A stretch of 64,000 bases of DNA, taken from Escherichia coli (GTDB taxonomy: Bacteria; Pseudomonadota; Gammaproteobacteria; Enterobacterales; Enterobacteriaceae). Within the stretch, counting starts at the first letter, position 1. Each line of letters opens with the position of its first letter. The stretch lies in assembly GCF_044647545.1 (NCBI RefSeq), contig NZ_CP172818.1, one strand, 5' to 3'. The notes under the pieces were generated by a model that did not search any database, was not told the DNA's origin, and worked only from the letters and a program-made list of their open reading frames with translations. Shown here one piece after another: positions 47,556 to 49,206 of this stretch. The translations under genes and the position numbers were made by a program.

Positions 47556-49206
47556 TAACAATATACGGTTGTAGTTGCTATATTTGTAAAGAGATTACCC
47601 CATCGAACCGGAATAAATGAAAATGACTATATTTTATGAGTTACTATCATCATTGAACAATCAGCATATAAGATAACCTCACCAAAAGCAGTTTAAACCA
47701 TGGTAAGTTGTAGAAGTGGGACATCTCGGCACCCCATTTTTTGTATGAAAAGTTACGAGAAATATATATTTTAATTTTTTTTTATATTATATATTAACCA
47801 AAATTAAAAAAACAACAATTTAAATAAAAAATTATTTATTACTTATATATTAACAATATCATAATAAATTCATTAAAACCGCTAGTTATAAATAATTATA
47901 AAAAAATCACAAATTGTTAAAATTTAATATTAATTATTTTAAAACAACCTAATGATATAAGATGGGGATTTATAGATCTAAGTGAAAGAGCTTGTTACTA
48001 TATTTTTATTTTTCTTTTGTTCCGGTGATTTGAATGGTATTAGTATGTTGAAAAAAATAGAAAAAAAGTGGAGGGGTCTAAGCCATAATATATCATTAGT
48101 GAAGAAAAGATGATGCATAAACTGAAATATAATATGGCAAAAAAGAATTCAAAGGCATCATTCTACTCCTGACTATTTTTCACATTTCCTCGAAGTTAAA
48201 TTGAAAATACGAGACGCAATATTAAAATTATACAAATGAATTCCAGAAAATCACGTAACGCTGCTTTTTTTACTAAACAATTCCATTTTATGTTTAAAAA
48301 TTAGATATCTATTAGAAGCTGTTTTTTATTGTTATAGATCATCAAAAATACTCCTTATAATAAAAGAACAAAATTGATTAAAAAATTGAAAATATTTATT
48401 ATCCATTACAACAATAAAAAATAAATTATATATTCTATTTGACTATTGGTTATTTCGTAGATGGTTGGGAAATATAACGATTATTGGAAAGATCAGCATC
48501 TCGGGATTTTTACAAGCAATATTGATTTTGAAAAGGGTATTCCTTTTCACGATACCATTCCAGATTTACCTGTATCAGATCTTGCATAATTTCACGAGAG
48601 CTTTATTAATTGGATGTGACATTCTCAGATGAAATAAAGCGTCATATTGTATGGAAACGATTTATACAAATCCCCAAATATTATTATGTAAAAATTTATC
48701 AAATAGAAATCAGACAGATGCGAAATCCAATGAGATCAAACAGCTACAAATTTAAAAATATTAAAAAAAATCATCACAAACGTATTAAAAATAAAAAATA
48801 CAAAAACATATTATTTATCTTAAAAGAAATCACCTAAATAAACCTAGAAAAATCATAAAATTAAATAACAAAATACATACCAATTATGAAAAATCACCAA
48901 AAAAATCTCTCACATTCATTCTATGAATTATTATTTCACTAATAAATCTAAAATCATTGCATCTCTCTCAATAATACAAACAAAAAAAAAAAAACGTCAA
49001 TATAATCATTCTTATTTAACCAAAGCTTCCACACAATCGAAACAGCACGGAAATAAGCCGCACTGGCGTCGACGCGGTAATGAATGAAGACGACTGCAAA
49101 ATAAGAAGAATCCGTAAACAGCAGAATTAGTTCTCAGGATACCGCACACGCTAGTAATATACGAATGATAAGTATTCAAGGCAGTGCTAAGACGTAATAT
49201 CGGTAA
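47556..49206. other. Second extremely AT-rich block with only eroded coding remnants; contains a 13-nt A run (48982-48994) and a 9-nt T run (47775-47783)
   Basis: Only one ORF of 60 aa or more (48610..48837, lysine-rich, low complexity); short protein-like frames such as ...GWEIYNDYWKDQHLGIFTSNIDFEKGIPFHDTIPDLPVSDLA*. Confidence 0.75.

Follow-up and report, generated by a model that had tools for sequence, protein, structure and literature searches.

A block at positions 47556-49206 of a 64,000-nucleotide (nt) stretch of Escherichia coli DNA (contig NZ_CP172818.1; the whole stretch is called the window hereafter) raises the question of whether it holds the remains of decayed genes or a faulty copy of intact DNA. 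The block lies among Rhs genes, is 1651 nt long, and has a guanine-cytosine (GC) content of 26.4%, compared with 50.3% for the whole window. An earlier note on this DNA had described it as a low-complexity block with eroded coding remnants, and had proposed a decayed gene, plausibly an immunity gene for the degraded toxin tip upstream. Its description is accurate: a run of 13 A at 48982-48994, the longest homopolymer of the 64 kb, and a run of 9 T at 47775-47783 are both present, and the only long open reading frame (ORF) is indeed lysine-rich (48610-48837; TTG start, 75 amino acids (aa), 14 of them lysine), being the longest inside the block. Stop codons crowd all six frames. The peptide GWEIYNDYWKDQHLGIF quoted in that note needs one frameshift, as 'DGWEI*' is read in one frame and 'MVGKYNDYWKDQHLGIFTSNIDFEKGIPFHDTIPDLPVSDLA' (48461-48589) in the next. 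An Rfam scan of 44-51 kb at E<=0.1 gave no matches. The comparisons described below lead us to a different explanation, namely that the block very probably arose through an error of sequencing or assembly in an rhs locus that is itself ordinary and known. We hold with still greater confidence that it is an artefact of some technical cause, when other causes of this kind are included.

The window covers the selA-yibF-rhs-yibA-yibH-mtlA locus of E. coli, with rhs located between yibF and yibH, and its closest relatives here are genomes of sequence type 648 (ST648), with which it shares 99.9-100% identity across tens of kb. The references include NZ_CP046396.1 (L001) and NZ_CP008697.1 (L002), and quantitative work was carried out on L001, L003, and L005. 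Comparative genomics of the rhs locus, which had been suggested as a check on the proposed decay, shows that the relatives carry intact sequence exactly where decay was proposed. In the relatives, the DNA from the first orphan Rhs toxin tip to the next orphan, which carries a tlde1 domain, contains an ORF of 100-116 aa, the end of the orphan toxin. Next come ~650 nt rich in AT, in which two small ORFs overlap, and a 156-nt 'transposase family protein' pseudogene, and finally an intact 1137-nt transposase gene of the ISAs1 family of insertion sequences (IS). More than 20 near-identical genomes have intact sequence at the block position, including the intact ISAs1 transposase, and the degraded version is absent from all public collections searched.

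To compare the two versions, we aligned window 44700-49300 with L001 6240-11200 in a global alignment. The abnormal stretch proper spans 47724-49202; its ortholog is L001 9169-11097, and ~24% of the bases found there are missing in the window. The leftmost ~170 nt of the block (47556-47723) are undamaged AT-rich spacer, and the spacer at 47559-47723 has a single substitution relative to L001 9004-9168. The alignment to L001 9169-11097 stays colinear through the IS as well as through the unique non-IS DNA to its left; therefore, the block and the reference interval are orthologs, and the block does not represent some other element. Between 47724 and 49197 there are 1367 matches, 65 substitutions, and 42 inserted nt, together with 461 deleted nt in 219 events, mostly of 1-3 nt. 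Aligned positions are thus ~95% identical even though a quarter of the bases are missing. Indel events outnumber substitutions ~4:1, and the ratio of transitions to transversions is 30:35 (0.86). The boundaries of the stretch are abrupt against near-identical flanks, and its density of differences is ~400x that of the 41.6 kb flanking alignment. On the left, window 45561-47723 is 99.5% identical to the reference, and on the right, window 49218-57388 contains 2 single-nucleotide polymorphisms (SNPs) in 8.2 kb. Directly before this near-perfect right flank, there are three substitutions relative to the reference at 49211-49217.

The missing bases have a distinctive spectrum. On the plus strand, the share of reference bases lost is 55% for G, 33% for C, 17% for T, and 8% for A (chi-square p=8e-72). 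Loss differs between G and C (p=1e-8) and between T and A (p=2e-6), so the dropout is strand-asymmetric. Isolated G is lost in 56% of cases and G in runs in 52-56%, and neighbouring bases have only a modest effect (G loss spans 0.44 to 0.64). The bias is equal in each quarter of the block and uniform along it. Deleted positions are clustered, with 215 adjacent pairs compared with 102±11 expected under independent loss. Two simpler error models were rejected: homopolymer compression, because isolated G is lost as often as G in runs, and a mixture of two reads from opposite strands, because the direction of the bias is constant in all quarters and in another AT-rich block upstream (described below).

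These losses also account for the composition of the block. The GC content of the corrupted stretch is 25.7%, compared with 36.8% in the reference, and that of the transposase remnant within it is 28%, compared with 42%. The 13-A run corresponds to AACAAAAGAAAGAGCCAGAAATGAC in the reference without its G, C, and T bases, and the 9-T run corresponds to ATTTTGTTTTTA without G. The long homopolymers and the extreme AT content therefore arise because dropped bases fuse shorter runs of the reference. The proposal of an eroded gene is contradicted by the 219 small deletions against 65 substitutions, the strand-specific loss in the order G>C>T>A, and flanks that are 99.5-100% identical. Judged as a natural pseudogene, the stretch has a density of differences, an indel excess, a transition-to-transversion ratio, and a strand asymmetry that are all at odds with the divergence of the surrounding genome.

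The intact sequence under most of the block is an IS of the ISAs1 family (H-repeat/ISEc1 type), located at 48244-49216 on the plus strand, of which ~970 nt are left of the 1291 bp in the reference. To set its limits, we used L001 9600-11250 as a query, of which positions 221-1516 gave multi-copy matches; the multi-copy unit in the reference corresponds to L001 ~9821-11112 (1291 bp). Of 5426 complete E. coli genomes, 5346 carry the element, at a median of 9 places per genome. In the window, its ends are damaged, and the 3' end lacks ~60 nt. No clear terminal inverted repeats could be made out even in the reference, where the best pair is 19 nt at 79%. Ahead of it, at 48138-48257 on the plus strand, lies the remnant of an older ISAs1 transposase N-terminal fragment. 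This fragment maps to L001 9682-9837, which is annotated as 'transposase family protein, internal stop, incomplete', and is thus a pseudogene in the reference too.

The transposase ORF remnant of the IS spans 48373-49206, with 834 of 1137 nt remaining, and holds the quoted peptide, the 75-aa lysine-rich ORF, and the 13-A run. The reference transposase is intact, with 378 aa and a match to the NCBIfam model NF033564 at E=1e-123 (412 bits, compared with a cut-off of 70). When this protein was used as a tblastn query, only two short high-scoring segment pairs were found in the window, in different frames: aa 42-94 (E=7e-8), which is the quoted peptide, and aa 313-337 (E=8e-5). The peptide is thus the N-terminus of the ISAs1 transposase and does not come from an immunity gene. 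The lysine-rich ORF begins in the true transposase frame ('SDEIKRHIV', compared with 'SDDKGVIAI' in the reference) and then drifts through A-enriched sequence. The window copy has no intact ORF and does not qualify as an ISAs1 transposase gene, whereas the orthologous reference gene does so fully; the window IS is therefore a non-coding image of a member of this family. The suggestion that the block covers coding sequence that can no longer be read was right.

Such an element is at home here. In the K-12 literature of the 1990s by Hill and co-workers, Rhs elements are reportedly the classical context of H-rpt, and the H-repeat transposases of E. coli Rhs elements are of the YhhI/YdcC/YbfD type. 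H-repeats occur in Rhs C-terminal tip regions (PMC3032704). The underlying reference element resembles H-rpt/ISEc1 in its length of 1291 bp, its 378-aa transposase, and its position among Rhs C-terminal tips. The copy in the record differs in that it lacks ~300 nt through scattered dropouts and encodes nothing, which we ascribe to sequence error and not to a variant of the element.

Searches of large collections returned no second copy of the degraded sequence. In none of the 5426 complete E. coli genomes is there a match to the block better than that at the intact syntenic locus, where identity is 75-79%, and nowhere in them is at least 80% of the block query covered. Exact k-mers of the block are absent from GTDB representative genomes and from JGI metagenome contigs, and a collection of 15 billion proteins contains none of seven ORFs located in the block or next to it. 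A divergent or AT-rich IS relative was also considered as the source and ruled out, since the best match in sensitive mode is the intact syntenic copy and the alignment runs on into unique non-IS DNA.

The window contains a further AT-rich block of the same kind at 44764-45560, located over the C-terminal toxin of the main Rhs protein and the yhhH immunity gene of the reference. Bases are lost there likewise in the order G>C>T>A (G.35-.42, C.16-.22, T ~.14). Within this first block, L001 6662-6703 appears twice, as a perfect copy at 45068-45109 and as a degraded copy ~150 nt downstream (about 45215-45270). An independently corrupted duplicate of this kind is a signature of joined sequence pieces and not of a duplication in vivo. 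The first block starts just past the conserved Rhs core end, of which the locus has three copies; the second contains the ISAs1 element and stops where this element meets the next Rhs core end.

The comparisons above show the orthology, the spectrum of errors, the sharp boundaries, and the uniqueness of the degraded version; what happened during assembly we infer from these features. In the real DNA, as judged from near-identical relatives, the orphan tip with its HExxH motif would be followed by a short AT-rich spacer, then by the small ORF, the old ISAs1 fragment, and the complete 1291-bp IS, which would abut the next orphan Rhs core end. In the record, bases would have been dropped across this 1.9-kb stretch, with a chance set by the base and by the strand read, and the removal of ~460 bases would have broken every frame and left only spurious ORFs rich in lysine, asparagine, and isoleucine. 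The likeliest cause would be a gap between accurate contigs that was filled with uncorrected, low-accuracy sequence from a one-strand read. Short-read assemblies tend to break at multi-copy repeats and in AT-rich DNA. Since both blocks adjoin multi-copy repeats and cover AT-rich DNA, accurate short-read contigs would end there, and the gap would need filling. Uncorrected long-read gap fill is a known class of artefact in hybrid assemblies. The block resembles such gap fill in its local error of ~30%, the dominance of deletions, the near-perfect flanks, and the adjoining repeats. Raw MinION reads have errors of 12-38% with an excess of deletions (PMC4722697, PMC4691839).

Several points weigh against this explanation. 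The block differs from uncorrected gap fill in its strong, G-specific, context-independent dropout, which is undescribed in MinION evaluations (PMC4722697, PMC4691839); our literature search found no platform with a G-specific deletion bias, and these two evaluations report none. The case for an artefact, although strong, is drawn from the sequence alone. Furthermore, AT-rich DNA at 50000-50700 (25-30% GC) and an IS end at 1-252 are clean, so that neither AT-richness nor repeat status alone predicts corruption. The window is also not a pure ST648 clone, as several islands differ from L001, so that what we take as the 'true' sequence of this strain at the block is an assumption. We note that a broader version of the explanation, with corruption at every repeat or AT-rich stretch, is ruled out, because 1-252, the IS1 region at ~29-33 kb, and 50000-50700 are all clean.

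The first alternative is genuine decay, in which two real pseudogenes, the ISAs1 element and the small ORF beside it, have suffered many small deletions and turned AT-rich. Real pseudogenes are found in Rhs orphan arrays, and even in the reference this interval has a tip and a small ORF that are both frameshifted, along with a transposase fragment. The DNA here was acquired horizontally and is rich in AT, and there are real island differences elsewhere between the window and ST648 genomes. However, decay would need ~300 events in 1.9 kb, compared with 2 SNPs in the right 8 kb and none in 24.7 kb, and no neutral process that spared those 24.7 kb entirely can account for such a number. It would also have to produce indels at 4:1 over substitutions, a transition-to-transversion ratio of ~0.9, a base-specific and strand-asymmetric loss (G 55%, A 8%), abrupt boundaries, and an allele unseen elsewhere. 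We know of no mutational mechanism that strips G from one strand, and we consider decay improbable.

A data-handling artefact, that is, a corrupted or edited record or a consensus from very low, biased coverage in place of a raw long-read fill, is quite improbable. It would suit a dropout that is set almost wholly by base identity, unlike documented platform profiles, and the 42-nt perfect island inside the first block. However, the clustering of deleted bases beyond independent loss (215 against 102 adjacent pairs) and the location of both blocks beside repeats, where assembly gaps are expected, fit a physical read that fills a gap. Recombinational import of the block from a very divergent, AT-rich, deletion-prone donor lineage with an orthologous locus is highly improbable. 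Recombination can produce sharp boundaries with near-identical flanks, and a substitution cluster at 41634-42188 in the main rhs gene resembles recombination between rhs copies. However, a divergent donor would bring many substitutions, in conflict with ~95% identity at aligned positions; the donor sequence is absent from every collection searched; and the same G>C>T>A dropout is found in a separate block 2 kb away. Finally, we give hardly any credence to the idea that the degraded sequence is real and reflects an undescribed, localised, strand-specific process of targeted deletion mutagenesis that removes G, and to a lesser extent C, from silenced Rhs/IS DNA in two AT-rich segments beside repeats.

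If the block is a technical artefact, as we favour, its extreme AT content, long homopolymers, and shredded frames are products of missing bases and are uninformative about Rhs biology. Taken at face value, the two blocks would give false pseudogenes: the main Rhs toxin would seem truncated, the yhhH immunity gene lost, and the IS dead. Spurious lysine-rich ORFs would appear as well, and analyses of the toxin and immunity repertoire or of IS activity in this strain would be skewed. The underlying arrangement, a main rhs gene with orphan tips, their immunity genes, and an H-repeat/ISAs1 element, is already known.

The left part of the block, together with the DNA before it, does contain a small biological lead. 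An orphan Rhs C-terminal toxin tip with the HExxH motif is located at 47095-47558 on the plus strand (L001 8538-9003). It carries HEIAH and matches two families weakly, namely Peptidase_M91 in Pfam (i-E=1.9e-4 on the reconstructed tip) and XopG/HopH type III effector metalloproteases in NCBIfam (E=0.007). A metalloprotease-like tip is an uncommon type of toxin among Rhs tips. The tip is frameshifted even in the reference genomes. In the window, there are single-base length differences from the reference at 47115, 47237, 47392, and 47533, in otherwise identical DNA. One C of a CC pair is gone at 47115, a C is inserted at 47237, and the deletions at 47392 and 47533 shorten T and G runs. The last three split the 116-aa toxin-tip ORF of the reference into pieces of 54 aa and 41 aa; 47115 is upstream of this ORF. 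These four differences may be genuine, or they may be additional small sequencing errors.

3' of this tip, the shredded remnant of a small ORF lies at 47777-48120 on the plus strand, corresponding to reference ORFs at L001 9231-9491 and 9446-9661. The ORF is frameshifted into two frames in the ST648 reference and is unreadable in the window. It is AT-rich, is unannotated in RefSeq at this locus, and has no family assignment in Pfam or NCBIfam. An intact homologue of 137 aa, P0016, is found at 794-1207 of the independent contig L006 (95% identity, E=2e-59; its cluster holds 104 sequences), and its translation might instead start internally, at MEIIYY or MNEIQL. It is co-oriented with, and ~245 nt after, a 100-aa toxin-tip ORF. 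By its position, the small ORF may be the immunity gene of the orphan toxin. An unannotated ORF of ~100-137 aa 3' of a Peptidase_M91-like tip thus becomes a candidate immunity protein. The idea of an immunity gene for the upstream tip therefore survives in part: there is a small candidate ORF at 47777-48120, but the peptide cited for it belongs to the transposase.

The locus as a whole resembles an orphan Rhs array: after the main rhs gene come two partial core ends, and each of them carries a separate toxin tip. One tip is of the Peptidase_M91-like HExxH type, and the other is a tlde1 tip with an Imm57 immunity gene; the small ORF sits where an orphan immunity gene is expected. This ORF differs from the usual pattern in that it has no recognised immunity family, starts about 230-300 nt past the toxin stop without abutting it, and is unreadable in the window. 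The first orphan Rhs core-end fragment (46627-47094, plus strand) is undamaged and identical to the ST648 reference, where it maps to L001 8070-8537 and is annotated as an RHS repeat-associated core pseudogene. The NCBIfam models RHS_core and Rhs_assc_core match the reference ORF of this core end. In the window, an ORF at 46639-47148 comprises an orphan core-end fragment and toxin tip. 3' of the block, the second orphan core end is fused to a tlde1-domain toxin according to the reference annotation (49207-49758, plus strand, with the gene itself at 49218-49758). It is undamaged, and the exact protein is known from many other E. coli. It is followed by an undamaged gene of the Imm57 family for immunity to the tlde1 toxin (49763-50284, plus strand), as annotated for the identical reference gene.

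The large Rhs protein itself is encoded at 40971-44750. Just past the Rhs core end, there is an extra G at 44699 relative to the reference (GA-CCCCC -> GAGCCCCC). This extra G shifts the frame of the main rhs gene, so that the ORF ends at 44750 and encodes 1259 aa, compared with the 1411-aa RhsB of the reference. An exact look-up returned no record of the truncated 1259-aa product. Inside the otherwise identical rhs core, 41634-42188 contains ~31 differences from the ST648 reference, mostly substitutions. This cluster suggests an exchange between rhs paralogues, by gene conversion or recombination, or else their cross-assembly.

The neighbouring genes were named from the annotations of identical reference genes. 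They are selA (38645-40036, minus strand) and yibF (40134-40742, minus strand) to the left of rhs, and yibA (45740-46597), yibH (50742-51878, minus strand), and mtlA (52779-54692) to its right. The selA-yibF region is 100% identical to several ST648-type genomes, window 253-25000 has 100.0% identity to more than 10 of them, and window 57484-64000 is 100% identical over 6517 nt. At 1-252, the window contains an intact end of an IS3-family element beside glyS. The ST648 reference has IS150 at the glyS site, and the two do not align in this orientation, which indicates a different IS or the opposite orientation. Other differences from the ST648 genomes are islands. At 28800-33756, a K-12-like yiaT-yiaW region with IS1 replaces an island with GH127, MFS, HicAB, and type I restriction genes. 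A 1367-bp Fic-family gene of L001 is absent in the window at the 35410 junction. At 57388-57484, a 96-nt spacer containing a repetitive extragenic palindromic (REP) sequence replaces a 6.5-kb region with DUF3251 and a YadA-like adhesin. The junctions of these islands with the ST648 genomes look clean.

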